In this document: positions 27,572 to 46,586 of the stretch, piece after piece
How positions within the stretch are numbered: the first letter of the stretch is position 1
Layout: each line of letters opens with the position of its first letter
Source of the DNA: Candidatus Eremiobacteria bacterium
GTDB taxonomy: Bacteria > Vulcanimicrobiota > Vulcanimicrobiia > Vulcanimicrobiales > Vulcanimicrobiaceae
Assembly (NCBI GenBank): GCA_963737065.1
Contig: CAVTRC010000001.1
Coordinates: 1,056,001-1,120,000, forward strand
DNA: 64,000 bases
Direction of reading: 5' to 3'
Program-made: the position numbers and the translations under genes
The notes under the pieces: generated by a model
What the model was told of the DNA's origin: nothing
Database searches by the model: none
What the model saw: only the letters and a program-made list of their open reading frames with translations

Positions 27572-29154
27572 TTATCCGGATGACTGCGCCTGTTGCAAAA
27601 AGATCCGCTGAGCGTTGATGTGCATTTCGCCGTTTGCCGGCGTACGGCGCTGATAGGAACCGTTCGCCAGCAACACGCGAGCTTTTACGTTGTCCGACAA
27701 CAGCACGTTGAGAATTTGGCTGGTCAGCAACTCTGCGAGCACCGGATCCAGCACGGGTACCGCTAGCTCCACGCGGCGATCGAGATTGCGTCCCATCCAG
27801 TCCGCACTCGACATGTACACCTCGCGGTTGCCGCCGTTCTCGAACACGTAGATGCGCGAGTGTTCCAGGAAACGGCCCACGATGCTCGTCACGGTGATCG
27901 TGTCGCTGACCCCCGGTATGCCGGGGCGCAGCACGCACATGCCGCGAACGAGCAGATCGATCCGAACACCCGCCTGGGACGCGCGATACAGCGCGCGAAC
28001 GATGTCGGCGTCGGTCACTGAATTTAATTTTGCGCGAATTCCGGCCGGCCGGCCCTCGCGCGCGTGTTCCGTCTCGCGATCGATCATCGATAGCATCTCG
28101 CGACGTAGCGTCACCGGCGCAACGAGCAAGTCCTCGTAGTCCTTGACCTTCGAGAAGCCCGTCAACGCGTTGAAGAGCTGCGTGACGTCCTCACCGAGTT
28201 CGCGGCGGCACGTAAAGAGGCTCAAGTCCGTATACAGCCGCGCCGTCTTCTCGTTGTAATTTCCGGTACCGAAATGCATGTAGCGGCGAATGCCGTCATC
28301 TTCCTGACGCACGACGAGCAGCGTCTTCGCGTGCACTTTCTGTCCCGGGAATCCGTAGACGACGTGAACGCCCGCGCGCTCGAGCCGCTTTGCCCATTCG
28401 ATGTTGTTCTCTTCATCGAAGCGCGCCTTGAGTTCGATGACGACCGCGACTTGTTTCTCGTTCTCGGCTGCCTCGAGCAGCGCGCGAACGATCGGCGAAT
28501 TCTTGCCCGACGTTCGATAGAGCGTCGCTTTGATCGCGAGCACTTGATCGTCTTCGGCTGCCTGCTGCAAGAATTGCACGACCGGATCGAACGATTCATA
28601 GGGATGATGCAGCAGCAGATCCGCATCGCGAATTTGCGCAAACAGATCGGTTTTCCCACGAACCGTACGTGGAATCGCGGGCATGAACGGCGCGTCACGC
28701 AACGTTTCATAGTCCGGCAGACGCGGCGATTTGCCAAAGATCGGAGAGCGCCATCAAGCCGTCGACTTCATAGCAGTCGACGTCCGAGAGATCGAGCGCC
28801 TGCAATAAAAACTCGCGCATGTACTCGGGCATGCCGCGTTCGACTTCCAGCCGCACCGGCTCACCGAAACGCCGGCGCTGTAACTCGCTTTCGATCGCAC
28901 GCAACAGATCGTCCGCTTCATCTTCCTGCAGATCCAGATCGGCATCGCGCGTTACGCGGAAGAGATACGCTTCGCGCACGGCCATGCCGGGGAAGAGCGC
29001 ATCGAGGTGATGGGCGATGAGATCCTCCAGCAGCACAAACCACCGCTCACCGCTCGGAGCACTTTCAACGGGAACGAGCCTCGGAAGCGTCGGCGGAATT
29101 TTCACCCGCGCAAAATGCAGCTCGACTCCTTCCGACGACGGTTCCTGAGATCAA
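27572..29154 (-). pseudogene. ppk1: Polyphosphate kinase 1, 3' part (frameshift near 28725)
   Basis: ELHFARVKIP, FRVTRDAD, LLHHPYESF, IKATLYRTS, ELKARFDEENNI, HFGTGNYN, RFLEHSRI, SSADWMGRNLDRRVE. Confidence 0.95.
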
Positions 29155-30799
29155 TTGCTTCCGCAGCCTGGGCTGGCCTTTGCCGGTCAACGTGCTGTCC
29201 TCGGACCAACGGCCTCAAGCTGACCTCTGGCAAGATCAAGCCGAACAAGATACTGGCCGCGTGTCTGCACCGTGGCGTCACGGACATCATGGGCCTGGAA
29301 GAAAAGCAGGCCATGATCGAATCTACCCTATTCAAGCGGGAGTTTGATCCTGACGAGCGGCGGGCGATCCTGGATTACTGTGCTGGTGATGTACGCGCGC
29401 TGGCGCTGTTGCCGCGCATGGTGGACCAGATTCGACCTGTACAGAGCGCTCATTCGCGGACGCTATATGGGCGCCAGCTCGGCTATGGAGCAGACCGGTG
29501 TCAATGGACACGGAGCTCGCCGGCCTGTTGTCTGCCGTATGGCCGCGATTGGTTGAGGTCATTATCGGCGATGTGGATGGCGCCTATGGTGTGCATCGGT
29601 TCGACAAGAGCGGCGGGCATTTCAATGAGCGGCTATTCCTCGCGTGGTGTGCAGCGAACGGGATTTGCTCGCCCTTGCTGGAAAGTGGTGCGCCCGACCT
29701 GAAGCTGGAGACGTTTCGCGATAATGGCGCAGAGCCGTCCGGGCTTGTCGCAACTGCACCAGCTACGCGCCACGGTCGGGAAGATGCGCAAGCTGAAGCT
29801 TCAGATCGGCAGTGACGGGCAAAGCAGAGCGCTCCTGTCAGCCTTTCAGTCCGTCACGTCACGCAATCAGCCCAGCACCAATAAGTTTCTGTTCGGGCCG
29901 TCGCGCTGGATACGCGGGCTGATCAAACCGGCGCGGGACGAAGCGGTGGCATATCTTGATTGGTCATCGCAAGAGGTGGCGATCGCCGCCGGGCTGTCGG
30001 GCGACGCGCAGATGATTGAGGACTACGGGTCGGACATCTATCTCCGGTCGCACGGGGCCGGATTGGTGCCGGCGGATGCGACCAAGCAAACGCGCATCGC
30101 GAGGCGCGCGACCTGTCCAAGATACTGTTCCTGTTTCACCAGCTACGGATCATCCGCCAAGGGATTTTCAACGCGCTCAGGGCTCGATTTCGCCAAGGCC
30201 AAGGCCCTGATCGGTGTGCATCGGCGCCGCTACGCCCGGTTCTGGACGGTCGCTAGCCCGGCAGGACAGCGCCCTGCTGACCGGCGCGTATCGACTCGCA
30301 GAGCGGTTGGCAGATGTGGATCATGGCCGAGACCAGCGTCAACAGCCTGCTGAACTGGCCGATGCAGACGCACGGTGCGGACATGCTGCGGCTGGCCGTG
30401 ATCGCAGGCATCGACGAAGGGATCGAGATTTGCGCGCCGGTGCATGACGCCTTGCTGATCAAAGCGCCGGCAGAACGGATAGATGCCGACGTGGCGCATA
30501 TGCGCGAGTTAATGACGCAAGCCGGTCATGCTGTCTGCGGGATCCCGGTGCGGACGGACGCGACCGTGGTGCGCTGGCCCTATCGCTTTATGGACGAACG
30601 GGAAGGCTCGCGGGCGATGTGGGAACGGATAACGCAGCGGTTGCTACCGCAGGTGGAGGCGGAGTGTAGGCTGGTGTGCCTGGCTGAGCCAATGCGCGCA
30701 GGAATTGTCCCCGAAATTTGCAGATGGAAGTCACCAGGTTTTATGCTACCACCCCCTTCAAATTGCGGACCCTGTATAGTATTCCTTCCTAGGAACTAA
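29149..30799 (+). pseudogene. Family A DNA polymerase, 5'-truncated with multiple frameshifts
   Basis: EINCFRSLGWPLPVNVL and ILDYCAGDV (exo domain), RNQPS, motif A YLDWSSQE, motif B-like SYG, NWPMQTHGADMLR, motif C PVHDALL, spread over several frames. Confidence 0.88.
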
Positions 30800-30887
30800 C
30801 CTGGACAAACCAATGTAGCAGGACTGATCAAGGTAGGAACGAGGATCGATAAACGATAGCTTACAACCATATAGTGTGGAGCGGTAG

Positions 30888-31370
30888 ATGAACGACAAGC
30901 CGAACAGGTTTGCGAATTACGACGATGTAGCGTTGCCTCCAGAAATAATTCGATACTATCCTAAGCCGAAAAGAACACCAAAGAAGAAGCAAATACCTGG
31001 ATATTTTATGCCGCCTGTTTCATGTCATTTATTGTATTTGGCAACGCAAGCGGCTGGCATAAATGGTGGATTTATTTATTGGTTGATCCGTTTTTATTGG
31101 AATTTGCATAGAAATGGGCCGTTTGCTCGTGAATTCGCCACTGTGCCTACTGAAGATCGCGAGGCTTTGGGCATTTCGCCGGAGGTTTTTAGTCGCACGT
31201 TGGAAAAATTGGTGATTGGCGGGTTGGCAAGGGTCGATAGGGAAAACGGCAAGGCGGTCAGGATTATTTGGGTGGCGACGGAGGATGATCTTGAGCGTGC
31301 GAAGTCGGAAGGCGCGAGTAGCTCGCCCACCGATCTAGAACGTCCCGATCCCGCTCCGCCCGCAAGCTGA
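30888..31370 (+). CDS. Hypothetical protein, possible winged-HTH, low GC
   Basis: GGAG RBS; LGISPEVFSRTLEKLVIGGLARV resembles a wHTH. Confidence 0.6.
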   Translation: MNDKPNRFANYDDVALPPEIIRYYPKPKRTPKKKQIPGYFMPPVSCHLLYLATQAAGINGGFIYWLIRFYWNLHRNGPFAREFATVPTEDREALGISPEVFSRTLEKLVIGGLARVDRENGKAVRIIWVATEDDLERAKSEGASSSPTDLERPDPAPPAS

Positions 31371-31651
31371 TCACCGCCACCGCGTCATCTTCCGGGCCAT
31401 GGCACCAAGCCACGGCAAGGCCTAGCCGGGTCAGATCGGCGAGCAAGCGCTCGTCGTCGGCCCGGACCAGGATGTTGCCGGTCGTGTTCACGTTTCGTGC
31501 AGTATGAGCCGTAGAATTAAATTTCAAGATTTCGCGTGTTGGGAGGTTGATTTTCTCCTCTTTGGCGGTTTCGGGGCTTGATTTTTTCCGCAGTTGTGTC
31601 CCAAATAATCAGTTGATATCAGTTATTCAACGAATTTGGGAATATTTTCCG

Positions 31652-32041
31652 GTGCCAAATGGCGGTGCAAGGCCGGGTGCAGGGCGGCCGCTGGGCTCAG
31701 GCGGTGTGCAGGCCAAGGTGCGGCACAACGTGACCGTAGCGGAGCGTATCGCGCGTGCGACCGTGGCCGACAAGCTGTGCGGAACCGACCGCGATCCAAT
31801 GGAGGTCCTGGCCGAGATCGGTGCGGACAAAGCCGAACCGTCCGTGACGAGGATTTACGCGGCGAGTAAATTGCTGCCGTTCTGCTACGCGCCGGTGCCG
31901 GTCACCCAGGTCACTGTCGGCGTCCGTGTGAATGACGATGCCATGGTTGACGAGATTGTCGATCGCGTCCGCGCCCTCCGCCAGCGCAAAGAGACTGTCG
32001 TGATTGAGCACCGGCCGGCTGCTGCCGAGGGCGACGACTGA
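31652..32041 (+). CDS. Possible terminase small subunit-like protein
   Basis: N-terminal GGARPGAGRP motif, DPMEVL..RIYAASKLLPF; upstream of terL. Confidence 0.5.
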   Translation: MPNGGARPGAGRPLGSGGVQAKVRHNVTVAERIARATVADKLCGTDRDPMEVLAEIGADKAEPSVTRIYAASKLLPFCYAPVPVTQVTVGVRVNDDAMVDEIVDRVRALRQRKETVVIEHRPAAAEGDD

Positions 32042-32042
32042 A

Positions 32043-32114
32043 ATGCCCGATAAGTGCGCTTATCTTGCATTCTTGGCCAGACGTCAGGTTGACGTAACGA
32101 ATATTTGGCCGATT
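32043..32114. other. Two dif-like (11-6-11) tyrosine-recombinase core sites
   Basis: ATGCCCGATAA-GTGCGC-TTATCTTGCAT (32043-32070); minus strand AATCGGCCAAA-TATTCG-TTACGTCAACC (32087-32114). Confidence 0.4.
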
Positions 32115-32749
32115 TCCGTCGGTGTCGTTGCTGAATGCTGCGCGCCTCAGTTGCGTGCGGTGCAGGATGTTGGCCTGAATAACCACAGAATCGGCGCGTT
32201 TTCCGTTTCGCGCGGGACGTGCCGATGTCGGCTGCGGGGCTGGCGGGATCCGCGGCCTCGCAGCTTTTCACGAGATCGGCGTGCTGTGAAGGACACGTCG
32301 ATGGCCGGTGGCGGCGCGCGTTGCCAGCAAGCGTGCGCCCGCCGGCCTCAAAACCAACCGAATCGGGCGCGAGGTGGAAGCGCGTCCGCCTGTCGGCGGG
32401 CTGTTCCGGCCGGTTACGGTTCCCGGTATGCGAGCGCCCGCCGGCTTTTTTCTTGGATCGGCAGGCAGCCATGGGGCTTGCCGTTCGCGGGGCGCGGCGC
32501 TCTGCCCACCTCGGGTGCCGTGTCGGGGCCGGCTGGGCTGTTACCCTTCGCGGGCGCGGCCGGCCTCACCTCGCGTCCATGCCAAAACAGCCACAGGGAG
32601 GCCCCGTACAGGCCCTTGGGGCGTTCCCGGCACCCCAAGCCCGCGGACGTGCGGCGAGGGCTGCCACGCCTCAGCGCTGGCGAACCTCCGCTCAAAAGAT
32701 CGGAGGTCTGGGCGGGGCGGATCACTCCGTTTCCGGAGCTTGGTGAAGC

Positions 32750-32971
32750 ATGAACGAACGCCAGCACGAGGTTGAGCATCGGCGAGCGGCCTACCGGGTG
32801 GCATCTGCCCTCCGACGGCACCATCCCGGCAGGACGGCGCACGTCTTGAGCCGTTGGGCCGAGCTTTGCGCGCAGGCTGAGCGTCTGCCGGCTGGCGAGG
32901 CGCTGCGCCACCATTGGGCGCTGGCGCGGGACGAATTTGCCAGTTTGGACGACGAAGGGCACCGGGGATGA
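32750..32971 (+). CDS. Small hypothetical phage protein
   Basis: ATG start, stop coupled to the next ORF (ATGA). Confidence 0.45.
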   Translation: MNERQHEVEHRRAAYRVASALRRHHPGRTAHVLSRWAELCAQAERLPAGEALRHHWALARDEFASLDDEGHRG

Positions 32972-33223
32972 CGCACGCGGGCAGCATGACCGAGGCGCAA
33001 TGGAAAGCGGCGCGTGCCCGGCTCCGGGACGGCTCGCTGCCGGCAGGCGGCGTCACATCCGCGCCAGTTCCACGCCGCCCGCATCGACCAGCAGCACCAG
33101 CAGCGCGGCCCGTGCGCCGTCGCCGGCACCGATGCGAGGCAAGCCTGCCATGGGGACGCCGAGCAGTATGCAGCCGCGCGCAGGGCGATTGCGCGTGGTG
33201 AGCCGGCGCCGACTTCCTGACGA

Positions 33224-33451
33224 TGCTGGAAACCTGGGAAGCGGCCGAGAAGTGGCTGACTGAATCACGCCCTGCCGTGAAAATCCGCAAGTCATTGAAA
33301 TCGCTAGGCTTTTGGGGTAGGTGAGGCTTGATGGGAAGGCTAATGACACGGCTGATGCTTTGCTGGAGACGTGGGAAGCGGCCGAGAAGTGGCTGACTGA
33401 ATTCCGCCCTGCCGGAAAAAATCCGCAGATCGTTGACGTTGCTAGGCTTTT
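33224..33451 (+). repeat. Imperfect ~90-bp direct repeat (duplicated coding segment LETWEAAEKWLTE)
   Basis: TGCTGGA..GGGAAGCGGCCGAGAAGTGGCTGACTGAAT..GCTAGGCTTT starting at 33224 and 33361. Confidence 0.9.
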
Positions 33452-33523
33452 AAGGGGGCTGAAGGTCAGCAATGCTGCCAAACGGGCACCGGGGCCCGCT
33501 AATGCGAAACAGGAACGAAAGCC

Positions 33524-34125
33524 ATGACACCGGAATACGAACGCCTCATTGACCATGGTCTGCCTGCGCGTGCTCGCGAGGCGTACGAGGATGCGCACAA
33601 GCGTCGTGGTGAGACCGCGGAGCTGTTGCAGCGAGCCCGGCGCAAGGTGGCGATGCGCATTTGGCGAAGCGGGACCTCGTCGCGCACGAAGCCAGCGGCG
33701 CCAAGGTATCGGGCCAGCAGGCGGCTGCGGCCAAGCAGGCCATCGAAGATGTTGAGGCGCATGCTGAGCATCTTGAGCAGTTGCTAGCGGCGCTGGACAA
33801 GCAGCTTCCAGAGCTGGAGCAAGAGTTGCTGAAGGCGGAGGGGCAGAGCTACGTCCCGGTGCTGAATGCTGCGATCGACGAGCAGATTGCGATTGCGGCT
33901 AGGTTTGATGTGAAGAGTGCGGAGCTGGCTGCGATCGTGGCCGAAGGCAACGAGACGCGTGCTGTGATACAGGAGTGCCTGCTGCACAACTGCCCGTTGC
34001 CGGCGCATTTGCGGGCTGATTTTGGTGGCAAGCTGGGTAATTTGCCGGTTGCGATGCCGATGCAGGGCGAGGCGGCCGAGCGCGCCCTCTGGCGCAGACA
34101 TGCGGTGCGCGAGGCGGCGGAGTAG
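33524..34125 (+). CDS. Hypothetical coiled-coil protein, probably frameshifted (33524-33787 and 33661-34125)
   Basis: Overlapping helical ORFs within the element operon. Confidence 0.45.
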
Positions 34126-34133
34126 TTGCGGTC

Positions 34134-34445
34134 GTGGCCAAGGGCCGTGCGTCCATTCGGAAGCTGCGCAAGCAGGCGGAGCAGCGCAATCAGCGCGAGG
34201 TGGAGCGGCGCAGGGCGAAGGAAGCGCGGGACGCTGCCCGAAGGATCGCAATGACTGAGCTAGAGCCCGCCATTGCTGTTGAGCGTCAATGCCGGTGTTG
34301 CCGGAACTGGTCGGCGGACGACGACGGGGATGGGCGGGGTTGTTGCGTCTTTCTGCTCAACGACCGAGCGGCGCGCGGGTGGCGCACGTTGCCTGGTGAT
34401 ACGTGCGACGCGTGGCGGCCCGATAATGACGCCGCACGCGGGTGA
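34134..34445 (+). CDS. Hypothetical Cys-rich phage protein
   Basis: CRCCRNW..GCC..TCDAW; directly upstream of terL. Confidence 0.45.
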   Translation: MAKGRASIRKLRKQAEQRNQREVERRRAKEARDAARRIAMTELEPAIAVERQCRCCRNWSADDDGDGRGCCVFLLNDRAARGWRTLPGDTCDAWRPDNDAARG

Positions 34446-35777
34446 CATTGCCGACGAGCTTGCATCTCTGACCGATGATGAATTGCGTACGGTTTTTGGC
34501 GGCCTGACGCCGCAGCAGCGTGAGCATGTCAAGTATATCTGGCGCCTTTGGGCTCGGCCGGATCAGTTGCCGCCGGAGGGGAGTTGGCGTGTTCACCTAC
34601 TTCTTGGCGGGAGGGCATCCGGGAAGACCCGGGCTGCCTCTGAGTTCATCCGCAACGAGGCGGAGAGCGGACGGCACATCCAGATTGGCGTAATCGGGCC
34701 GACGATGGATGCGGTGAGGCGCGTTCAAATCGAGGGGCCGAGCGGCATTCTGGCCGTAGCGCCGCCGTGGTGCCGACCGGTTTACGAGCCATCGACCAGG
34801 CGCTTGGTTTGGCCGAACGGTGCGATCGCGCATTTGTTCAGCGGGGAGGAGCCGGAGCGTCTCAGGGGGCCAAATCTCTCTCTCATGTGGATCGATGAGC
34901 TGTGCGCGTGCGCTGTAGGCACACAAGAGACGTTATGGAACATGGCGATGATGGCGTTGCGGGTGAACGGGCCGAAGGGTGCGTTGCCCAGGTGCATTGT
35001 CAGCACGACGCCGAAGGCCACGAAGCTGCTCAGAGAAATAGTGGCGGCGCCGACGACGGTGGTGACGAAGAGCCGGACGCTGGACAATGCGCCTAACCTC
35101 GATGCGAGCACGCTCAAGTATCTGACTGACAAATACGCCAACACGACGCTGGGCCGGCAGGAGCTAGAGGCGGAAATTCTGGACGATGTTGAAGGTGCGT
35201 TGTGAATCGGGCGATGCTGGACGAGTGCCGTGTGCCGAAGGTTGATCTTTCGTTTCTACGTCGCGTTGTGGTGGCGGTGGACCCTGCTGGCGGGACGAGC
35301 AAGGGCAGTGCCGAGACAGGGATTGTAGTTGCCGGCGTCGGCGAGGACGGGCATTGCTACGTGCTGGCCGACATGAGCGGGCACTTCAGTCCGGACCGTT
35401 GGGCACGGCGCGCGATTGACGCTTATCACCAATACCGGGCAGACCGCATCGTCGCAGAAGCCAACTTCGGCGGCGAAATGGTGCGCGAGACCATCCGGGC
35501 GGCGGGTACTGCGGCGATACCGGTAACGCTGGTGAGCGCCAGCCGAGGCAAGCAATTGCGTGCGGAACCGGTGGTGGCCCTCTACGAACAGTCGCGCGCA
35601 CACCACGTTGGCAGCCCGCTGTCGGGATTAGAGGATCAGATGTGTCAGTGGTGCCCGACCGAGCCGGGACCGTCGCCCGATCGCGTCGATGCGCTGGTTT
35701 GGTCCGCGACCGAACTGATGCTGGCGGCGCAGGTCCGACCGGCGCGGTTTACCAACATCGATTGGATTCAGCGGTGA
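34426..35777 (+). CDS. terL: Phage terminase large subunit, frameshift near 35203
   Basis: ARPDQLPP, Walker A GGRASGKT, PERLRGP, Walker B WIDE, STTPK, LGRQELEAE; nuclease domain VAVDPA..ETGIVVAG..EANFGG..SPDRVDALVW; one missing base splits EGALWNR. Confidence 0.93.
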
Positions 35778-36950
35778 CGAAAAGCGCAGACGCACATTCG
35801 GACGTTTACGAGGCGGCCCTTGCGCTGTTGCGTGCGATCGCGGAAGACCCGATGCTGCGTCCGTCGCATCGCCTGCAGGCGCGGCAGCAGCTCCGAAAGT
35901 TGTTGCAGCCTAAACCTGACGACAGCGATGCGAGCGCGAGCGCGTGACGGACAGCCGCAGAAGGGCAGCTCCAGATTGATTACACTAGTTGTTGAGCGTC
36001 GGCATGCCCGCCATGCTGCCGTGGGCCTTTGACCACGGCATGGCGCAGCACATATCCCCGCCATCAGCAAATTCCTGGGGGCTGTCGATCGGAAGCGCCT
36101 TATCGGCGGGCGGCCCCCAGGTGACGCTTTGTGGTCAAAGAAAGCCAGCATTGCGCTGCCCGGCGATTGCGCCCGATGGTCGCATCCGACAAAGCCTCGC
36201 TCTGAGGTGATCGGCGCACGCCAAATTCTCTGTGAAGAATCACCCGGCTGGCATTGCGGCAACTCCATGAGATGTTCCATCCCCTCCGGACTTCTTGGCC
36301 GAGGTCCTGGTATGAAGCCGCAGTGTCCTCCCGACCAGAAACTATCGGAAGCGCAGCGTCGTGAGGCCGAGCGCGCACAGCGGCGTTTGGTCAGTCTCCA
36401 GACCGCGCTGGTCATCGCGCGTGGCCAGGAGATACTGGGGCGGGCGCGCGCAGTTTCGAGCGATGTGCGCCAGCACCTAAATCGGCTACAACAGCAAGGC
36501 TACCTGAACTGAATCCGGGCAGACCGGAACCGGATTGCCGGGCACGCCGCGCAGCGCCGGGGAAGACCCGCGACGCGTCCCGTGGCGTCCAAGCCCGGTT
36601 TTCGCAGAGCCAGCATTGCGCCCTGCGGTGATTGTGTCCGAACCCCGCCCCGCTAGATTCCCCGCATGTCCAAGCCTCCGCGTATCGTCACGGCCCGCCC
36701 GCCGAGCCGGATCAAGCGCCCGAAGGCCCAGGCCGCTGCTGTGGAGCCCAAGCCCGGGCAGTGGTGAGAGCCGGCCGGCGCTGTGATCGCGGCACTCACT
36801 CGCTTGTCCCGCTTCCGAAAGCTGTCTAACCGTTGGACATCTTGCGGAAACGCACTATGCGCAACCGTTTGCGGGAAGCGGGTCATCAGGGCGGCGGCCC
36901 CGCGCGAGCACATGTTCGCTCGGTCTCTGTCAAAGCGAGTGGGATTGCAG

Positions 36951-37931
36951 ATGCCTGTTCCTCGCCACACCAAAAATACCGATGCTGGACGGGCGGATGC
37001 CACTCGGAGATTGGACATTCCGGCGTCGGCCCGACCTTGCCGTTTGGCCTGGATCGACGCGACGGGGATTGGTGCGATCCACTTGATCGCACTGCTTGCG
37101 TTCGTGCCCTGGTTCTTTAGTTGGACCGGAGTAGTCCTGGCACTTCTGGGACTCTATGTATTCGGCACGCTCGGGATCAGCCTATGCTTTCATCGTATGC
37201 TGACCCACCGCAGCGTCGTCTGCCCAATATGGTTCGAACACTCCCTTGCCATCCTTGGTTTGTGCTGTGTCCAGGACACCCCGGCTCGCTGGGTCGGCAT
37301 ACACCGGCGGCATCACGAGCATGCCGATGAACAGCCGGACCCTCATAGTCCGCTTGCTGGCTTCCTTTGGGCGCATCTCGGTTGGATGATCTTCAGAAAC
37401 CGAGATATAACCCGCATCAGGTTGGTCACGCGCTATGCCAAGGACGTTATGCGGGACCCTTTCTACGCCAAGCTGGAGCAGAACTTCCGCTGGGTCCGGG
37501 TGGTACTGATCTCATGGTTGGGTTTCTTTGCCGGTGCGTTCCTCGTTGAACTGGTTCTAGGGAGCAGCGCGCTGGGCGCAATTCAATTCGGCCTCAGCGT
37601 GCTGATCTGGGGCGTATTCGTTCGCACGATTCTCGTTTGGCACATCACCTGGTCCGTCAATTCTGTGACGCATATGTGGGGCTATCGCAACTACGAAACC
37701 GGTGAATCCAGTCGCAACAATCTGATCATTGGCTTCCTCAGCAACGGCGAAGGCTGGCACAACAATCATCATGCCGCCCCGCGTTCGGCGCGCTTCGGTC
37801 ATCGGTGGTGGGAATTGGACACGACGTGGTTAACGATCCGACTTTTCTCTGCACTTGGCCTCGCGCGGAAGATCGTAACGCCATATCCTTCACTTGCAAT
37901 CACAAGGGACGTGGATCGGCATGGCGTTTAA
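36951..37931 (+). CDS. Delta-9 acyl-CoA/acyl-lipid desaturase (element cargo)
   Basis: His boxes HRMLTH, HRRHH, GEGWHNNHH; DPHSP, VNSVTH. Confidence 0.93.
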   Translation: MPVPRHTKNTDAGRADATRRLDIPASARPCRLAWIDATGIGAIHLIALLAFVPWFFSWTGVVLALLGLYVFGTLGISLCFHRMLTHRSVVCPIWFEHSLAILGLCCVQDTPARWVGIHRRHHEHADEQPDPHSPLAGFLWAHLGWMIFRNRDITRIRLVTRYAKDVMRDPFYAKLEQNFRWVRVVLISWLGFFAGAFLVELVLGSSALGAIQFGLSVLIWGVFVRTILVWHITWSVNSVTHMWGYRNYETGESSRNNLIIGFLSNGEGWHNNHHAAPRSARFGHRWWELDTTWLTIRLFSALGLARKIVTPYPSLAITRDVDRHGV

Positions 37932-38116: not shown

Positions 38117-38620
38117 ATGCATAGTCACCTGAACGTTTGCGGCGTCGCGACCGCCGCTGTAGCGCTTTCGGTAATCTTGCCAGCCGCTTTGGCGCAAGGG
38201 AGCACTTTTACATCCACTTGTCAGGAGATACGTAGCGGCGCGCCCGGGCCGCGCGGAGATCGCGAAGGCGATTTGATCTCGGTTGAGCAGGATCGTTGTC
38301 ACGTTGATTCAGGCCCGCTGATCGGAGGCGTCTTGGTCGAAGCAATTATTTGGGAATGGGACAAGACGAAGACGAACGCCGTTCTGCTCTCAGGCAGCGG
38401 CGTCATCCGCAAACCGGGTTCAACGGTAGCCTTTCAGATCACAGAGGGGAAGCTCGCGGTGACGATCACCGACGGCAAAGTCACCGGCGCCACAAGTTCG
38501 GGTCGAGGCAACGACGGGGTAGCAACTGGCGGCGCCGCATCGCTGGCTGGCAAATCGTATACTTGGTCGACAAAGTCAACTGGAAGATTACAGTTTGTGC
38601 TCGATGTCGAGATGGAGTAG
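38117..38620 (+). CDS. Hypothetical secreted beta-rich protein
   Basis: GAGGAG RBS, signal peptide. Confidence 0.7.
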   Translation: MHSHLNVCGVATAAVALSVILPAALAQGSTFTSTCQEIRSGAPGPRGDREGDLISVEQDRCHVDSGPLIGGVLVEAIIWEWDKTKTNAVLLSGSGVIRKPGSTVAFQITEGKLAVTITDGKVTGATSSGRGNDGVATGGAASLAGKSYTWSTKSTGRLQFVLDVEME

Positions 38621-38699: not shown

Positions 38700-39771
38700 T
38701 CATCCTGATGCCGACCAGGGCAGGAGCACGATCTTGCCCCCGAGCCCTCCGGCATCAATGCGGGCATGGACCTCCTGCGCAGCAGTGAGCGGCAAGCGAT
38801 CAACGACGACAGGGTGGATGGCGCCACCCACGCAGCAAATCGAAGAGCGTGGCCATGTCGGCCTTGAACTCTTCTGGCTGCGACGAGCGCCTGTCGGTGA
38901 TGCTATACCATGTTGCGCGACGGCCACCCAACAGGGTGCCCAGTGCGCCCCAGAGTTTGAGACGAGCCAAACCCAGCCCGGCGGCAAGCAAGCCTTCTCG
39001 CCCGATTGCCATCGTTTGCGATCCATAGCCGACGAGTAAGCCGCCAGGTGCGAGACAAGCGAAAGAGCGGCCGAAGTGCGTCCCTCCGATCGCGTCAAAG
39101 GCGACATCGACGCCGTTTCCCCCCTCGCGCCCTGACGTGAGCCGGCGCACGGATGCGACGAAGTCGCCGGCCCGATAGTCAACCGCGGTAGCACCGAAGC
39201 GCTCGACCACAGACATGTTGATGGCCGAGCACGTCCCTATCGCCATGAGGCCAAGGTGCCGTGCAAGATCGAGTAGTGCGGTGCCGACCGTTCCCGATGC
39301 GCCGATCACGAGGATCATCGCTCCTGGCCGCAAGCGCTTGCAGCGGGTCAGCATCTGGAATGCGGTGAGATAGGCGAGCGGAATGCAAACCGCCTCAGCG
39401 GAATCCACGCTATCCGGAACCGGCACGAGAAAGCGCGCTGGGCGGATTGCATACTGTGCGTATCCGCCGGTAACGCAGAGATCGGCGACCAACTGACCTT
39501 CCGTCGGCGAAACAACGCCGGGGCCTGCTTTCTCGACGACGCCCACGAGTTCGCAGCCCGGCGTGAACGGCAGCGGTCCCTTGAAGTCCGGGTAACGGCC
39601 GCGGCGTATGAAACTATCGGTAAAGCCGGTTCCAGCGGCGATGACCTTGATGCGAACCTCGCCGGGACCTCATCCTCCCCTTCGGACCGGGGTCGGGAAT
39701 GCTCGGCTGTTCCGCCATCTCCAGGACCTCGGGACCCCGAACCGAGCGATACGAATGTGTTGCCACGACAT
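38700..39771 (-). pseudogene. MDR family oxidoreductase, several frameshifts
   Basis: GGPEVLE, PFTPG, GGYAQY, IGASGTVG, FDAIGG, GKIVL across frames. Confidence 0.85.
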
Positions 39772-40364: not shown

Positions 40365-40742
40365 GTGAAGCCACATGATAGGCTTCGTGAGCTGATGGAG
40401 GATCGCGGGCTCACACAAGCCGAATTGGCACGCCTGGTCGGCACGACACGTCAGCAGATTTATAGGTTCGCCACCGGACAACTGCGGATCAGCCCAGAAT
40501 GGGCTGAGAAGATGGCGCCTCATCTCGGCGTTCGGTGGCAGGACATCTTTGATCGGGCGGCGAAGAAAGAGCCGGCCCGGCAGACGGTGCCCCACACTCG
40601 GCGCGTCGTGCAGATAGCGTCCGTCAAAGCGTCTTTTCTCGTCGCCCTGTGCGACGATGGCACGATTTGGTTCACGACCTCCCCGGACGGCCCATGGAAG
40701 CCGTTCTCCCTCCCGCCAGGAGCCAAGCCGTCCCATGAGTAG
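40365..40742 (+). CDS. XRE-family HTH protein
   Basis: RLRELMEDRGLTQAELARLVGTTRQQIYR. Confidence 0.85.
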   Translation: MKPHDRLRELMEDRGLTQAELARLVGTTRQQIYRFATGQLRISPEWAEKMAPHLGVRWQDIFDRAAKKEPARQTVPHTRRVVQIASVKASFLVALCDDGTIWFTTSPDGPWKPFSLPPGAKPSHE

Positions 40743-41154
40743 GGGCATCCGCCCATACGGCGGCCTGTTCGTCGGCCGCCGTCGCCCCCGCATCTACGGC
40801 GGCCTGTATCTGCGCCTGCCCGGCGGCGGCGCGCTCGGCATGAATTACCATGGCCGGGTGTGGTTCAAGCAGTCGTTCTGCCGCACCCGTGGCGGCTCCC
40901 GCACCACGCGCATCGTAGGCGCCGCCGTGCTAATGGCGATCCTGCTGGCGCTGCTGGCGGTGGCGCTTGCCCTCTCGGCGCCCGCTGCCGAGACGACCTG
41001 CTACGAGGCGACCTTGCCTGGCTCCGAGCCATACGAGGCGGCGCGCAATCAGGCCGAGCTGCCGGTGCAGCAGGACGAGCGCGAGGAGCGGGCGGCGGCG
41101 TTGTACTGGGCGTGCCGGGAGGGGCAGGGCGGGTGGGATTATCCGACAAAATAA
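40735..41154 (+). CDS. Hypothetical membrane protein
   Basis: Central TM segment; coupled to both XRE genes. Confidence 0.45.
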   Translation: MSRGIRPYGGLFVGRRRPRIYGGLYLRLPGGGALGMNYHGRVWFKQSFCRTRGGSRTTRIVGAAVLMAILLALLAVALALSAPAAETTCYEATLPGSEPYEAARNQAELPVQQDEREERAAALYWACREGQGGWDYPTK

Positions 41155-41468
41155 GGACCAGTCGAAACGCGGCCGGCCTCACGCAAAGGGAAGTTGCCAG
41201 GCAAATGCGGGTGTCGCCGAGCGCTGTGGCCCAGTGGGAGAGCGGCGACACTAAGCCTAAGATGACCACGCGGGCCGATTTGGCGCGGGTGCTTAGCGTT
41301 CATTTCCTGGATTTGCTCCCCGAAAGTGCTGAGGTCGGGGACGGGCTGCTTGTCCGAGGCAAAGAAGAACAAGCGTTGGTGCAGATGTTCAGGCGACTGC
41401 CTGAACAAGTGCGTTCGACAACCCTGGCGTTGCTCGCCGCGATCTTGGACGAGCTGAACTCCCGCTAG
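41133..41468 (+). CDS. XRE-family HTH repressor
   Basis: KIRTSRNAAGLTQREVARQMRVSPSAVAQWESG. Confidence 0.85.
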   Translation: MGLSDKIRTSRNAAGLTQREVARQMRVSPSAVAQWESGDTKPKMTTRADLARVLSVHFLDLLPESAEVGDGLLVRGKEEQALVQMFRRLPEQVRSTTLALLAAILDELNSR

Positions 41469-41884
41469 CGACCTCCCCGCCACCAGCGACGGAACCGACC
41501 GCGGCGACGAATGACCCGCCGTTCCGCCTCCAGGGTCTCGATCCTGGCCAGTAGTCGATCACGCTCGGCCCGCAGGTCAGTAACATGGCCCTCTAAAGCC
41601 TTGATCGTGGCCGATTGTCCGCTCCCGACATCGCGCCTGATATCGGGGCCGGCAGCATCCCCGGCGTCGCGCCCGGCATCATGGTTGACAACATCCCCGG
41701 CGTCGGCCCTGACGGCATCCAGGGCAGCTTGAGGCACGCCCACCCGGGCGCGGCCATCATTGCCCGGTTGTCGGGGCCAACGGGCACGGGCTGCCCTCCG
41801 ACGCACGCTGGCACCGCTGATCTTCAAAGCGGCGGCTGCATCATCGTACGTCATCCACCTGCGATCGACCCCGTCGTCATTCAT
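41465..41884 (-). CDS. Plasmid-type HTH plus coiled-coil protein
   Basis: WMTYDDAAAALKIS..VRRRA..WPRQPGNDG, C-terminal coiled coil ending RRWW. Confidence 0.65.
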   Translation of the reverse strand: MNDDGVDRRWMTYDDAAAALKISGASVRRRAARARWPRQPGNDGRARVGVPQAALDAVRADAGDVVNHDAGRDAGDAAGPDIRRDVGSGQSATIKALEGHVTDLRAERDRLLARIETLEAERRVIRRRGRFRRWWRGGR

Positions 41885-41934
41885 GTCGTCGGCGCCTGAC
41901 AGCTTGAATTGCGTCGGGGCAAGGCGGGACGTGC

Positions 41935-42261
41935 TCACGAAGGTGAGAGATGGGGCGCGATTTGAGCCAGATCAAGCCGGCTGGCGCCGGTGGGGAGGAT
42001 GGCGCAGCCAGTAAGTGGATAAACTTGCAGGATGGTTGCAATGCAGAAGCACCCAGCCGACACGGCGGCAAAGGTCGCGGCCCGCTTGTTAAGCCTCATA
42101 GAGGTGCCCAAGGCGGTGAAGAACGGGTGATCTGAAGGATAGTCGATAATGTAGGTCACGAAGGGCGGTAATCTGACCGCCGCAGACTGATACCACTTCC
42201 ACGCGGCGAGCCCCGCCGTCAGTGCACTGGCAAGATTTAGCAAGAAGATAAGCGTCGCCAT
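41935..42261 (-). CDS. Small hypothetical membrane protein
   Basis: Two hydrophobic segments. Confidence 0.5.
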   Translation of the reverse strand: MATLIFLLNLASALTAGLAAWKWYQSAAVRLPPFVTYIIDYPSDHPFFTALGTSMRLNKRAATFAAVSAGCFCIATILQVYPLTGCAILPTGASRLDLAQIAPHLSPS

Positions 42262-42279
42262 TCCAAACCGGGGGCAACG

Positions 42280-42756
42280 CTAGGCCGACTTCCGGAGCCG
42301 GCGGGCCTCGGCAAGATCGATCAGGTTCAGGGGTGGAGCAGCAGCCTGGGCGGTCTCGCGTTCCGGCCCGGCCAGACGGGTGCTGATCCGCGGATTGACC
42401 TTGAAGCGCGGAGGGTAGCCCGGCCGTTTCTCCCGCAAGAGGGCGTTGAGATCGATCAACTCTGTCCGGATGCGTGAGACCTCCCGCACGTTGATACCGG
42501 CCGCCGTGGCGAGGTCTTGCCGCTCGATGTGGACGTAGCCCTCACGGTCGCTGGCATCCAACAGCAGCGCCCAGATAACCGCGGCAGCCTTGGGGTAGCG
42601 GGAGTGCCGGGCGATCCACGCATGCACGGCAGCGTTCTGGGTCGTGTCTATCATTGAGAAACGCCACCGGGGGGTGATGCGCGGCGGTGATATCGTAAGG
42701 CCGGGCATTGTGGATATCCAGGCACAGTTTGCATCCCGAGTGTCCGGGGATTGCAT
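42280..42756 (-). CDS. Winged-HTH protein, RepL-like plasmid replication/maintenance candidate; start uncertain
   Basis: RQDLATAAGINVREVSRIRTEL HTH followed by FKVNP. Confidence 0.55.
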   Translation of the reverse strand: MQSPDTRDANCAWISTMPGLTISPPRITPRWRFSMIDTTQNAAVHAWIARHSRYPKAAAVIWALLLDASDREGYVHIERQDLATAAGINVREVSRIRTELIDLNALLREKRPGYPPRFKVNPRISTRLAGPERETAQAAAPPLNLIDLAEARRLRKSA

Positions 42757-43381
42757 TTATGCTGGCGAATTTCCGCCAAGTTGAGAAGACATAGAATTTC
42801 AGACAAGAGAAACCCCCTTTTGTAGTTTTCCCCCAAATCGGTGGGCAGTTCGGCATCGAATGACGACGCTGGCGACGCCGCAACACGCCTGCTACGGATT
42901 GTGGTGATGGCCGACCTCGCCCGACGCCCGCTGAAGGAAGCGGCAACCGCCCATAGCGGCCCCATCCCGCAATCCTTCCCTCCCGGTTTCATCGGCACGC
43001 TGCCGGAGGGCACACAGTGCACTTGCACCTGCTGTGGCGCATCACTGTGGTGGTTGGATCCACGGCGCGCGACCATCGTGAGATGCGTCGTGTGCTATCC
43101 GCCGCCAGCGGGTGTGGAATGGGTCGAGACCGCGGTGGCTCGGTAACGACGCACGGCGCTAGGGCTTCTTCCCACGCATCCGTTCCAACTGGTCCCACAC
43201 TTCCGCCCGGAGCTCCCCATCGGTGCATTTTTCGGCATCGGAAAAGCTGTTGGTGGCGACGCCGGCGCGTGCGCTATGAAGCGAAGGCGCGGCTAGGTCC
43301 GGCCGACCGAAACGCTCTGTCTCCTACCAGGGCTGCCGCGCCACCCTTCAGGTAGGAAGAAGCGCTGTAGGAGGCGCGCCA

Positions 43382-44074
43382 TTGGACCAAGAACGTCTTA
43401 ACGGCGCGGGCCCACTGCCCGAGACCGAACCTGCGCGGGCATCAGGGCAAGCCACAGCGACAGCCTACGCCAGGCTACGGCAGGCCCTCACCGATGCCCG
43501 GAGAGACTATCCGACCGACGATCAACGCCTGGTCCGCGCCGCGCTCAGCCTTCTGGCTGTCCTGAAATTCCTTGAGCACGATGCGACGATTGCCCCGGCA
43601 GGATTAGACCGCGAGCTATGGAACCTATTGGCGGCGGTGAAGGATATCGATGCGGGCGCCGGCTCGACTTGGCTGGATCCACATAAACCCCCACACAAGC
43701 CGCCACTTCGTGTGGCTCAGAAAAGTATCCGCGATACAGCAGCGATTGCCATGCACGAACTTATGGCCGGCGGCCTTCAAAAGGCTGCGGCAGCGCAAAA
43801 AGTTGCCAGATCGATGATTACCGGAAACTTGAAATTGACCAGCGACCGTAAAGGCGGCGTTACGCCTCTTTGGCATAGGGTCGCTGCCTGGCGCGACGAA
43901 CGGCCGCAGCCGCACACGCAAGAGACCGCGTGGCCGGAACTCAGGCTTTGGCGAGCGACCTATAAGCAGGAAACCGGCTGCGACGGGACGCCATCGGGGC
44001 GGGCGGAATATCTTTTGCGCATGTTGCAGGGGGGATTGGTTAAGAAACTGAAATCGAAAAAGACCCCGTCTTAA
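43382..44074 (+). CDS. Hypothetical protein
   Basis: AGGAGG RBS, 230-aa ORF upstream of the AlpA-like gene. Confidence 0.6.
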   Translation: MDQERLNGAGPLPETEPARASGQATATAYARLRQALTDARRDYPTDDQRLVRAALSLLAVLKFLEHDATIAPAGLDRELWNLLAAVKDIDAGAGSTWLDPHKPPHKPPLRVAQKSIRDTAAIAMHELMAGGLQKAAAAQKVARSMITGNLKLTSDRKGGVTPLWHRVAAWRDERPQPHTQETAWPELRLWRATYKQETGCDGTPSGRAEYLLRMLQGGLVKKLKSKKTPS

Positions 44075-44149
44075 TCCGACCGACCGCGCTCTAGCTGATT
44101 AGCCGCGACATGGCGGGGATTGTCCCGCCGCCTCGCGGAGCTCAGTTTC

Positions 44150-44380
44150 ATGTCAGACATCGCTCACGACCCGGACGTGGAGGGGCTGCTCACGTCCGAA
44201 CAGGTCCGCGCCCGGTTCGGCAACATCAGCGAGGTCACACTCGGCCGCTGGTTGAGGGACGCGCGGGTCGCGTTCCCGAGGCCCGACGTTGTCGTCCACT
44301 ACCGCAGGTTCTGGCGCCCGGAAACGATTAGGGCGTTCGAATTACGCTCTGCTCCGCCTCGTGGCGGGGAGGCGGCGTGA
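44150..44380 (+). CDS. AlpA/excisionase-like HTH protein
   Basis: LLTSEQVRARFGNISEVTLGRW..FPRP..RRFW. Confidence 0.8.
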   Translation: MSDIAHDPDVEGLLTSEQVRARFGNISEVTLGRWLRDARVAFPRPDVVVHYRRFWRPETIRAFELRSAPPRGGEAA

Positions 44381-44553
44381 AATGCGCTTGCCCTATATCC
44401 TCTTGGACCTGGCCGGGCGTGTTCGGGAATGCCACCCGCTAGCCGCTGAACAGTCGGCGCCGCTCAAGTTTTGCGGCCGCAACGATGTGCTCGCGCTACC
44501 TATCACGTACATCGAGGCGAACGCGCTAGCCGAGATTTCGGCGGAGGCCGACC

Positions 44554-44907
44554 GTGAGTAAAGCCTCGCGCGACAAGGGCCAACGCACCGAACGCGGCAT
44601 CGTCGCCAAACACCAAGAACTTGGCGTCACCTGCGAACGCGTCCCGCTCAGCGGTGGCACTCGATACCAAGGTAACGGTGGCGACATCGACATCGAGATC
44701 GCCGGGCGAACACTGCACGGCGAAATCAAGGCGCGCGGCAATGGCGGCGGGTTCGCCACTATCGAACGATGGCTCAGTGGCAATGACCTGTTGTTCCTGA
44801 AACGAGACCGCCAGGAGCCGCTAGTCGTGCTCGCGTGGCGCACTTGGCGAAGTCTCATGCAGGAATTCTCTCACTTCACATCACCAACACATGGAGACAA
44901 CCAGTGA
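44554..44907 (+). CDS. Hjc-type (PD-D/ExK) Holliday junction resolvase
   Basis: SRDKGQRTER, RVPLSG, GDI..EIKAR, DLLFLKRDR. Confidence 0.75.
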   Translation: MSKASRDKGQRTERGIVAKHQELGVTCERVPLSGGTRYQGNGGDIDIEIAGRTLHGEIKARGNGGGFATIERWLSGNDLLFLKRDRQEPLVVLAWRTWRSLMQEFSHFTSPTHGDNQ

Positions 44908-45423
44908 CGCTTTTCACAAAGCGCGCGCGCAGGCGGCCGTTCCTGACGTGCAACAGCAAGGCCAAGACGTTGTGCCACCAGGTGCCGGATTACGATACCG
45001 GCGGTTGGACCGATCAGGTTATCGAGCCGCCGTTCCGGTTCCTCTTTAACTACGGCAACGTCGAGCATGGCGGGACGGTATTCCAGCCGGCGTTCCAACG
45101 GGTGACGGGGCCGTGGTCAGAGCCGTCGATTGAGGGTCCGGACGGCGGGCAGGTACACGATCCTGGCCCCCGTGTATGCACCGGAACTCGGTTATTATGA
45201 TCTCCCGTTCACCGGCGGTTACGGGATCGGCGTCGCTGAGCGTCTGCTGAACGAAATCGAGGCGTCGCCCGAATGCGCCCGGGGCCTTGAGCCGGTAATC
45301 GATTTCACCGGATGGAGAGACAACTCGCCGAAGGGTGGGCCGGGCAAGGGTCAGGTATTCGGTTCGCTGATATTAGTGATCGTTGGCTGGATGCCGCGCC
45401 CACCATTCTTCGAGCCGCGATGA
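44904..45423 (+). CDS. Hypothetical phage protein, frameshifted near 45140
   Basis: Two overlapping ORFs (from GTG 44904 and 45130-45423) in operon context. Confidence 0.4.
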
Positions 45424-45590
45424 AATCCAGTTCCGAAGCCTATGCAAGCGTTGACGTTCTCCGGCGGCCAGTCGGCGATGGCGTTCAACGAGGCGTCGCT
45501 CGTGCTCGCAGCCGTGCCGTCGAAAGTGGCACCGAAGGGTGGCGGCGAGATCATTGATGACGTCTTGCCGTTCGGTCCGGAGGTGCGGCG

Positions 45591-45893
45591 ATGCCCGACT
45601 TCCTGTTCGAGACGCCACCAACCGAATTGCCGGACATCTTCGATACCTTGTTGAAGGCGTCCTACCGGCTGAGTGGACCGTCCGATGATCAGCAAATGCC
45701 GGGTTCCGAAGAATACCGGTTACTGGCAATGATCGCCGAGCAAGTCGATACCTGGCGGTGTGGCGGCAATTGGGAACAGTCCATTCACGGCGGCCCGTGG
45801 AAGCCTATAGCTGCTGCTTTCCTGCGCAACCTTGCCGAAACGCTAGGCTTGGCAGCCGACATGCTGGACGAAGTTACACCCCCAACCAGGTAA
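45591..45893 (+). CDS. Hypothetical protein
   Basis: GGAGG RBS, ATG start. Confidence 0.5.
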   Translation: MPDFLFETPPTELPDIFDTLLKASYRLSGPSDDQQMPGSEEYRLLAMIAEQVDTWRCGGNWEQSIHGGPWKPIAAAFLRNLAETLGLAADMLDEVTPPTR

Positions 45894-45941
45894 GCACTTG
45901 CAAAGAAATCCGGACGGTTGCCGCCGTCCGGAGTAAATTTG

Positions 45942-46586
45942 ATGGAGTTTATCGTGCTCGACTTGAACAACAGTAAAGACCCGCAGGAAGTCAAGCCTAC
46001 ACCCAACGGTGCAGACCCCGAGGAAGCCAGACCTACGCCTAAGACCAGCATCTTCGCAGACTATGACAAGATCAAGCTGCCGGTGGATGACGGCCCCGGA
46101 AGCGGGGTCGTCACGGGACTGGGCACCGTCCCGGTAACCAAGCCAGGCAAGGCGGATTGGGTCATGGTTCACCCGACCGAAAGCACACCGGTCTGCGGAC
46201 TATTCACTGACGGCGACAAGACCTGCTACTTTGTCCTGCCGGGAGTGTTCCCGGTCGTTGCGCAATACGCCTTACACGTAACTTTCCACAAGGCGGTCAC
46301 GGCGCAGCGCAAGGCTTTTATCTGGCCGGTGCCGGTCGTAACCACGGACAATGAGCGGGCGCAGAAGTGGTATCAGTCGCACCGCAATGCCATGGAACAC
46401 GCCAAGACATGCTGGACGCAAATGTATTCGGATCAGCAGATGGGCGGGTATCACTACCGGAAGGCGCCCGGCGATTTGGGACAGCCGTTCTGGCGTCCGG
46501 AAACCCTGCAAGAGATGTTGGAGATCGCCTTCCGCGATAAGATTATCGCCGACATCTCACATCCGATCAACCGCAAGCGAGAGTGA
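45942..46586 (+). CDS. Conserved phage replication-region protein (possible SSB-like); last codons come from host DNA
   Basis: [40 protein letters not shown]; reads across the right junction at 46565. Confidence 0.6.

Follow-up and report, generated by a model that had tools for sequence, protein, structure and literature searches.

A block of 17.4 kb splits the ppk1 gene of a Candidatus Eremiobacteria bacterium (assembly GCA_963737065.1) and is probably the fossil of a compact mobile element of phage origin that inserted once into the coding sequence, a dead copy that would have entered without the normal attachment-site (att) and integrase route. The window, the whole 64,000-nt stretch that was analyzed, spans positions 1056001–1120000 of the larger contig in a two-contig assembly (2.50 and 0.58 Mb; 60.5% G+C). 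The foreign block occupies window positions 29149–46570 inside the minus-strand ppk1, which confirms the extent given in the original prediction, an earlier reading of this DNA. The insertion site is defined by four features.

27575..29146, minus strand: 3' part of ppk1, middle and C-terminal domains, in two frames (Pfam PP_kinase_C_1, PP_kinase_C, PP_kinase)
29149..29154, no strand: left copy of the 6-bp direct repeat GATCAA (sequence read; compared with intact ppk of L009–L011)
46565..46570, no strand: right copy of GATCAA (same basis)
46567..48084, minus strand: 5' part of ppk1, N-terminal domain and start of the middle domain (Pfam PP_kinase_N, PP_kinase)

The insertion of ~17.4 kb is real, because ppk genes of the same genus align unbroken across the site and GATCAA stands at both junctions. 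Pfam searches of six-frame open reading frames (ORFs) place the C-terminal domain and most of the middle domain at ~27575–29150, and the N-terminal domain with the first ~40 middle-domain positions at ~46560–48084. In all three same-genus ppk loci (L009–L011), alignment runs unbroken to window position 29146 and resumes at 46567, with 5 nt between these points in the relatives. The left junction reads ...CCTGA[GATCAA]TTGCTT... and the right ...CATCC[GATCAA]CCGCAAG..., an exact 6-bp direct repeat. In the ppk reading frame, AAC at the right junction is a synonymous Val codon and ATC changes a conserved Glu to Asp; the GATCAA sequence may have pre-existed in ppk1 or derive in part from the element. 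Each of the five relatives' ppk genes tested has a single open frame of 706–814 amino acids (aa) with no stops. The broken gene persists here as four fragments (tblastn with the G003 ppk; they include pieces of aa 291–432 and 433–813) and contains two 1-nt insertions, near 28720 and near 46795, both outside long homopolymer runs (L009 and L010 served as references for the mapping). No second ppk1 is found in the genome with the same tblastn query. The only ppk1 of the organism is destroyed, and PPK1-dependent polyphosphate synthesis is presumably lost.

The ends of the block carry two genes that belong together in related elements.

29147..30667, plus strand: family-A DNA polymerase (PolA) pseudogene (Pfam DNA_pol_A on two ORFs; tblastn of eight homologs)
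45894..46570, plus strand: conserved PolA partner gene of a ~190–250-aa family with a possible oligonucleotide/oligosaccharide-binding (OB) fold (library matches, neighborhood; the ORF runs to 46583)

Among 24 viral loci on contigs retrieved through PolA, the partner gene lies directly upstream of PolA in 15, and most of the other nine begin or end too near PolA to tell. The pair is also adjacent in a bacterial genome of the host's family (G144). In the window, one gene stands at each end of the block. Because the partner gene and PolA are adjacent in relatives and split to opposite ends here, the block is circularly permuted and its two ends were neighbors in the ancestral molecule. The details of the junctions are consistent with this arrangement. 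PolA homology begins exactly at the left junction (29147), where EINCFRSLGWPLPVNVL aligns to homolog residues ~68–99. The recognizable polymerase starts at homolog residue ~68–83, and the first ~67–83 residues are gone, including an ExoI motif that reads DFEF in homologs (alignment A2). At the other end, the partner ORF (45894–46583) has lost its last ~6–8 residues and now ends in ppk-derived codons; its alignment stops ~5 aa before the C-termini of the listed relatives. Together, the last ~6–8 partner codons and the first ~67–83 PolA codons account for ~220–310 nt missing between the ends. Ends permuted in this manner would not be expected from an integrase acting at a phage attachment site (attP).

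An exact 6-bp direct repeat on both sides of a block with no recombinase of its own also suits a passive segment moved in trans by a transposase or another recombinase, with the GATCAA pair as a 6-bp target-site duplication. This explanation is highly improbable in light of the ends themselves, which lie within the coding sequence of a conserved gene pair and, as read, show no terminal inverted repeats. Among the 25 longest of the 60 pairs in a repeat scan, none lies at the ends. By blastn, the genome has no second copy of any part of the block, and no transposase family is found within it.

The partner gene belongs to a family (A3) that corresponds to no Pfam family and adjoins this type of PolA. 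It has 1995 library matches, of which the 149 listed besides the window's own (P0121) are all 163–340 aa long. At E≤1, Pfam gives no identity for the right-end ORF or for its homolog in L021. The AF2 model of the partner protein has a pLDDT of 85, and its best structural match, at a weak Z of 3.9, is to OB-fold chains of the single-stranded-DNA-binding protein (SSB) type; Foldseek returns no match at E≤0.001. The protein may be a polymerase accessory factor or a single-stranded-DNA-binding protein, with the OB-fold/SSB reading as a lead only. A role for the right-end ORF as the exonuclease domain of a fused PolA was considered and rejected: the listed family members are too short to hold a polymerase domain, and the PolA homologs have an N-terminal ExoI motif of their own.

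Between its two ends, the block contains the following features.

30888..31367, plus strand: hypothetical ORF, 160 aa (no family match)
31508..32038, plus strand: phage ORF of unassigned function, phrog_15261 (PHROG E 1.6e-8)
33224..33462, no strand: two tandem copies of a ~138-nt unit, 76–90% identical (blastn self-match and repeat scan, families D1/D2)
33613..34122, plus strand: Ala/Glu-rich coiled-coil ORF (positive coding potential; no family match)
34134..34445, plus strand: small basic Cys-rich ORF directly upstream of the large terminase gene, a candidate small terminase (TerS) by position only (translation)
34438..35774, plus strand: large terminase, TerL (Pfam Terminase_6N E 9e-16, Terminase_6C E 2.5e-15)
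36783..37931, plus strand: fatty-acid desaturase, membrane protein, apparently intact (Pfam FA_desaturase E 3.7e-19; NCBIfam DesA family)
38117..38620, plus strand: hypothetical protein, 167 aa (positive coding potential; cluster look-up gives Pseudomonadota clusters only)
38703..39669, minus strand: zinc-dependent alcohol dehydrogenase (ADH)/quinone oxidoreductase pseudogene (Pfam ADH_N, ADH_zinc_N, ADH_zinc_N_2 in two ORFs; TIGR02824)
40365..40742, plus strand: XRE-family helix-turn-helix (HTH) regulator 1 (Pfam HTH_31, HTH_3; PHROG repressor families)
40860..41468, plus strand: XRE-family HTH regulator 2 (Pfam HTH_3 E 8e-12; PHROG repressor and CII-like families)
41465..41938, minus strand: excisionase/AlpA-type HTH-like regulator with a coiled-coil tail (phrog_66 E 1.7e-5)
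42280..42756, minus strand: winged-HTH protein, weak matches (HTH_36 E 0.013, Phage_rep_O E 0.17, phrog_186 E 8e-4)
43286..43356, plus strand: int-alpA RNA motif RF02996, full length (Rfam 43.4 bits against a gathering score of 35.8)
43382..44074, plus strand: hypothetical protein, 230 aa, downstream of the int-alpA RNA (no family match; cluster look-up gives unnamed clusters only)
44099..44377, plus strand: small ORF resembling a phage DNA-binding protein (phrog_597 E 5e-6)
44554..44907, plus strand: PD-(D/E)xK nuclease resembling Holliday-junction resolvases (phrog_244 E 2.8e-9; D...EIK motif)

These assignments derive from Pfam scans of 173 six-frame ORFs of ≥70 aa overlapping 28500–47500, flanks included, and of 124 ORFs of 40–69 aa within 29101–46620 (both E≤0.01), from a PHROGs scan of 144 ORFs (E≤1e-3), and from an NCBIfam scan of 86 ORFs. 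The polymerase, TerL, the resolvase-like gene, both XRE regulators (40191–41465), and the HTH genes announced by the original prediction are all recovered by these profiles. The TerS-like ORF it had named does not fare as well: neither 33613–34122 nor 34041–34442 matches a TerS family, even at E≤0.5, leaving a position upstream of TerL as the link to packaging. Three features had not been mentioned before, namely the desaturase, the broken quinone oxidoreductase, and the int-alpA RNA. Several of the regulatory and nucleic-acid-binding assignments are tentative. The AlpA-type regulator has no Pfam match above cut-off and none to Pfam AlpA. The resolvase-like ORF is shorter than the profiles and scores 21.3 bits against PDDEXK_15, under the 27-bit cut-off. 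The weak match of 42283–42756 to phrog_186, a DnaD-like helicase loader, is the only hint of a replication loader. Between TerL and the XRE genes lie 4.4 kb comprising the desaturase, a hypothetical gene, and the oxidoreductase. The desaturase carries three His boxes and is foreign in kind, with 42–49% identity to the relatives' desaturases. A second desaturase homolog outside the window (G000 C1:2125772–2126557) is split over three open frames and is another pseudogene. The tandem ~138-nt units precede the coiled-coil ORF and the packaging genes by ~150 nt and could be a pac/cos site or a regulatory repeat. A 77-nt tRNA-Gly(GCC) called by ARAGORN at 31818–31894 on the minus strand, inside the phage ORF, is probably false: it is aberrant, is unlike the other Gly tRNAs of the genome, and has no Rfam tRNA match at E≤0.1. 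Its candidacy as a former att site is rejected with it.

As the original prediction had stated, and as far as the Pfam, PHROGs, and NCBIfam profiles see in six-frame ORFs, no family match is found for an integrase, transposase, portal, capsid, tail protein, primase, or helicase. No resolvase or recombinase Pfam family matches any six-frame ORF of ≥40 aa, and the six places at which PF00589 is found genome-wide all lie outside the block. When 16 integrases, portals, and capsids of relatives are searched against the block by tblastn, the best E value is 0.024 and the pieces are non-collinear, at chance level. A relaxed search for a portal remnant behind TerL (E≤5) gives scattered noise only. Tyrosine-integrase fragments occur outside the window at C1:1160665–1161194, ~58 kb past the right end of the insert, and at C1:2347292–2347420; both are short pieces, the latter with an internal TGA, and the two sites suggest other decayed mobile elements.

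For the entry route and the nature of the ancestor, we infer the following sequence of events. The element would have carried a regulatory switch, made up of the two XRE genes and the Xis/AlpA-like HTH gene with its int-alpA RNA; a replication module of resolvase-like nuclease, OB-like protein, and family-A polymerase; a packaging module of TerL and possibly TerS; and the desaturase and quinone oxidoreductase as cargo. The incoming molecule would have been either circular or a concatemer piece of unit length, with the opening in the 5' part of the polA it carried. A single crossover at GATCAA may have joined it to ppk1 at the 6-bp sequence, or the joining there may have been of ends at a staggered break. 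Since insertion, selection would have ceased on ppk1 and on most of the insert, with frameshifts accumulating in both. If so, the locus clearly illustrates the trapping of a phage-type genome in a chromosome without its integrase, and its ends, inside its own polymerase region, would document the illegitimate capture of a circle or concatemer.

The distribution of the block indicates that the element is foreign to the host lineage. Its DNA is not found in 40 relatives, a tally that takes in the unpublished genomes G014 and G036, save for a short conserved desaturase motif. This type of TerL occurs in one of 347 other genomes searched from the family and in two of 400 others from the phylum, and this PolA in one of 384 other genomes from the class. 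The best relatives of TerL are at most 64% identical, and the few with names are alphaproteobacterial. A scan of genome contigs with the TerL alignment yields 80 loci of the broad TerL clade, the titles of 37 of which name Rhodobacterales or Paracoccaceae taxa. These loci share nothing with the rest of the insert at E≤1e-4 except the oxidoreductase in one locus, and are therefore uninformative on the element. TerL matches on plasmids are at most 46.5% identical, and seven of the 12 listed records are replicons of 0.4–4.6 Mb. A DNA search with the whole block against phage and plasmid collections gives no match, and a single-protein search for TerL loci in viral contigs finds nothing.

PHROG scans of PolA-bearing loci, largely on metagenomic and IMG/VR contigs, reveal a recurrent compact order: an integrase, a few small genes, the OB-like gene, PolA, one to three small genes, sometimes HNH, then TerS and TerL, in some cases followed by a portal and a protease–capsid fusion. 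Two IMG/VR contigs of ~13 kb (L112 and L115) carry the OB-like gene, PolA, a gpA-type TerL, a portal, a protease–capsid fusion, and an integrase, and a 9.9-kb IMG/VR contig (L111) has the same set with no integrase within the contig. In these three contigs, of 9.9–13.5 kb, one or two small ORFs separate TerL from a portal that follows 0.7–1.6 kb downstream. L103 and L114 carry the OB-like gene, PolA, TerS, and TerL, and L107 and L110 a serine integrase, the OB-like gene, PolA, a portal, and TerL. The most compact relative is L117, an IMG/VR contig of 8418 nt with a 127-nt terminal repeat; when it is circularized (8291 nt), the TerL ORF is completed across the junction. It contains a tyrosine integrase, the OB-like gene, PolA, HNH, TerS, TerL, and three small ORFs, with no space for a portal or capsid, and by its sequence is a complete capsid-less circle with a full terminase and its own polymerase. 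L119 (60-kb contig) and L123 (24.9-kb contig) come from larger phages that also have tail or lysis genes. The block fits the family order, with PolA 3.7 kb upstream of TerL and, once circularized, the regulatory genes upstream of the OB-like gene, apart from the missing integrase, portal, and capsid and the 4.4 kb of cargo in their place.

A related island is present in a bacterium of the host's family. Across ~21 kb (G144 C7:77300–98240; L138 and L139), this island contains an integrase, the OB-like gene, a PolA split by a TGA, the nuclease domain of a gpA-type TerL, and a second, split integrase. Its G+C content is 56% in the 20-kb L138, which covers most of the island, versus 61% in the adjoining L139, and no capsid is recognized.

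The presence of the PolA module in larger phages such as L123 and L119 raises an alternative origin, in which an ordinary full-length temperate phage used its own integrase to enter and afterwards lost genes through internal deletions (portal to tail, lysis, and int genes) and was rearranged, bringing polA to the ends. The portal that follows TerL in L111, L112, and L115 means that its absence here could be a deletion, and the int-alpA RNA suggests a former int/alpA neighborhood. This history is nevertheless unlikely. Entry by integrase would place att and int at the ends rather than the halves of the OB-like–PolA pair, and the occurrence of polA at both ends calls for at least one extra rearrangement that left ppk1 collinear. 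Deletion also leaves unexplained the 4.4 kb of desaturase and oxidoreductase in the place of structural genes, and no remnant of a portal, capsid, or integrase is detected. The ancestor is thus more likely a compact satellite-like element or defective genome caught by illegitimate recombination than a prophage trimmed in place. A satellite-like ancestor is plausible, and its kind would not be wholly new.

The state of the genes indicates that the copy is dead. The PolA pseudogene passes through frames 2>3>1>2>3>2, at least five frame changes, with an in-frame stop at 29700–29702 and a garbled motif region at ~30093–30245. TerL shows 63% and 60% identity to its best relative (P0002) in two frames; its Walker A motif, GGRASGKT, is intact, and the DNA as read has a 1-nt deletion in a TGG codon at ~35203. 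The oxidoreductase matches positions 27–240 of 325 in TIGR02824, with its C-terminal piece in another frame. The flanks carry ordinary housekeeping genes, and among the 40 flanking ORFs scanned the six large ones (693–1078 aa) are each in a single frame. The lesions thus appear to cluster in ppk1 and the insert, and sequencing error in general is judged an unlikely source of the frameshifts given that these six large flanking genes are intact. At present, the block would be incapable of excision by its own recombinase, of replication by the polymerase it encodes, and of DNA packaging, and its effects would be the loss of ppk1 and possibly the expression of the intact desaturase and regulators.

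These lesions bear on the proposal, put forward in the original prediction as a candidate new type, of a live integrase-less and capsid-less satellite or phage-plasmid that is copied by the PolA it encodes and uses its own terminase to load itself into helper proheads. Part of that idea survives: both gene classes are present within 17.4 kb, a compact capsid-less relative exists in the complete 8.3-kb circle L117, and capsid-less satellites with TerS and a DNA polymerase have been described, as far as the available text of the source goes (PMC9618062). A working self-packaging replicon in the window is, in contrast, extremely improbable. Its PolA is truncated at the junction and has at least five frame changes and a stop, its TerL is frameshifted, no integrase or other recombinase is found, and the block occurs in none of the 40 relatives. 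The genome contains neither a PF05065 capsid nor a second Terminase_6N gene, leaving no resident helper of that type by these two profiles. The block likewise has no plasmid replication or partition genes (no match to Par/Rep families in Pfam) and no plasmid relatives, so that the phage-plasmid reading is unsupported. The remnant that the original prediction offered as the simpler alternative is the better description, with the amendment that its ancestor was probably compact already.

Several points weigh against the reconstruction of a dead element captured by illegitimate recombination. The 6-bp repeat could also be expected from a recombinase with a 6-bp overlap or from a transposase. When the block is closed into a virtual circle, the right-end ORF and the left-end PolA fragment share one reading frame across the junction, which could mean a natural fusion rather than the loss of ~250 nt; the chance of coincidence is one in three. 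TerL is otherwise well preserved, and its single lesion could fit a younger or partly maintained gene, or an assembly error. Parts of the block may still be used, given the intact state of the desaturase, the XRE genes, and a number of small ORFs. Finally, a very divergent integrase among the ~7 kb of unassigned sequence may escape profile searches.

Among known systems, the block most closely resembles defective prophage and satellite remnants, with which it shares phage-derived replication, regulation, and packaging genes, pseudogenes, a lack of structural genes, and restriction to one lineage. The features by which such remnants are recognized (pseudogenized phage genes, lineage specificity, and missing functions of the full cycle) are all found here. 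The block differs from them in that it has no att or integrase ends, its ends split the OB-like–PolA pair, and its target is the ppk1 coding sequence. Of the PolA relatives, L117 shares with the block its compactness, the absence of portal and capsid, and the pairing of PolA with an OB-like gene immediately ahead of it and packaging genes close behind. It differs in its tyrosine integrase, HNH, recognizable TerS, TerL of another family (phrog_9), lack of cargo, and intact genes. To our knowledge, no capsid-less satellites with a full TerS, TerL, and HNH set have been described, a statement made without a dedicated literature search and with no claim of novelty.

A phage-plasmid is an extrachromosomal replicon that combines plasmid replication and partition genes with full phage structural genes. 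The block is integrated in a 2.5-Mb contig and shows no Par/Rep families, structural genes, or plasmid DNA match. The gene transfer agent of Rhodobacter capsulatus (RcGTA) typifies conserved chromosomal clusters in which portal, protease, capsid, and tail genes come after TerL. The block shares its TerL clade with the 80 genome loci described above, but nothing else at E≤1e-4 apart from the oxidoreductase in one of them, and no portal remnant is found.

Phage-inducible chromosomal islands of the capsid-forming kind (cfPICIs) carry an integrase, large terminase, portal, and capsid. The passages on them in the available text of de Sousa et al. mention an integrase, capsid, TerL, and small terminase (PMC10085698). 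On that description, L111, L112, and L115 resemble cfPICIs in their TerL, portal, and protease–capsid fusion, and the block shares TerL and a compact layout. The block differs in that it lacks an integrase, portal, and capsid, its TerL is frameshifted, and in place of a primase-replicase it has an OB-like protein and a family-A polymerase. The same portions of that paper define phage-inducible chromosomal islands (PICIs) by an integrase, a regulator, a primase-replicase, a capsid-morphogenesis gene, and TerS, and P4-like elements by an integrase, psu-delta-sid, alpA, epsilon, and alpha (de Sousa et al. 2023, PMC10085698). Judged by those definitions, the block resembles PICIs, including the Staphylococcus aureus pathogenicity islands (SaPIs), and P4-like elements in being small, in having a candidate regulatory gene of HTH/AlpA-like type, and in lacking tail and lysis genes. 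It differs in having no integrase, no primase-replicase or alpha primase, no psu-delta-sid, and no capsid-morphogenesis gene, and from PICIs also in the presence of TerL. A PolA pseudogene stands in place of the primase-replicase of PICIs; for their regulator, the phrog_66 match (E 1.7e-5) and the int-alpA RNA are candidates, without a Pfam AlpA match. Profile scans find none of the P4-like set as so defined (integrase, psu-delta-sid, alpA, epsilon, alpha primase).

In the available text of Eppley et al. (2022), virion-encapsidated integrative mobile elements (VEIMEs) are marine elements of <5 to 16.8 kb with no major capsid gene and with a tyrosine or serine recombinase (PMC9618062). Some members of their module 6 carry small terminase and DNA polymerase genes, and TerL is among the helper genes presumed to complement them, according to the same portions (PMC9618062). 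On these terms, the block is likewise compact and without a major capsid gene, its PolA being a pseudogene and its TerS a candidate only; it differs in its lack of a recombinase, its size of 17.4 kb, and its large terminase. VEIMEs, whose concatemers travel in helper-phage virions, are the closest described kind to the PolA relatives as far as that text extends, a likeness of description rather than of compared polymerase sequences.

The more interesting lead lies outside the window, where the OB-like–PolA module marks compact elements with their own terminase, possibly satellites, at least one of them complete and capsid-less. It is possible, if tentatively, that the incoming molecule was already a ~17.7-kb circle or concatemer unit without capsid or integrase, belonging to an under-described compact class that combines the OB-like protein and family-A polymerase with its own TerS and TerL, with or without HNH, and depends on a helper phage for the rest of the virion. 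Were this true, the helper would supply tails only to members that carry a portal and capsid, and both proheads and tails to those that do not. L117 would then be the minimal intact member, L111, L112, and L115 the capsid-forming members, and the window copy a cargo-carrying member that had lost its integrase and hence was captured by illegitimate recombination. In that event, satellites that lack a capsid but encode a replicative polymerase and the entire terminase holoenzyme would be a real and widespread type missed by current satellite finders.

Elsewhere in the window, at 5491–6225 on the minus strand, a regulator with HTH_11 and WYL domains stands beside a carboxymuconolactone decarboxylase-family gene, among housekeeping genes.

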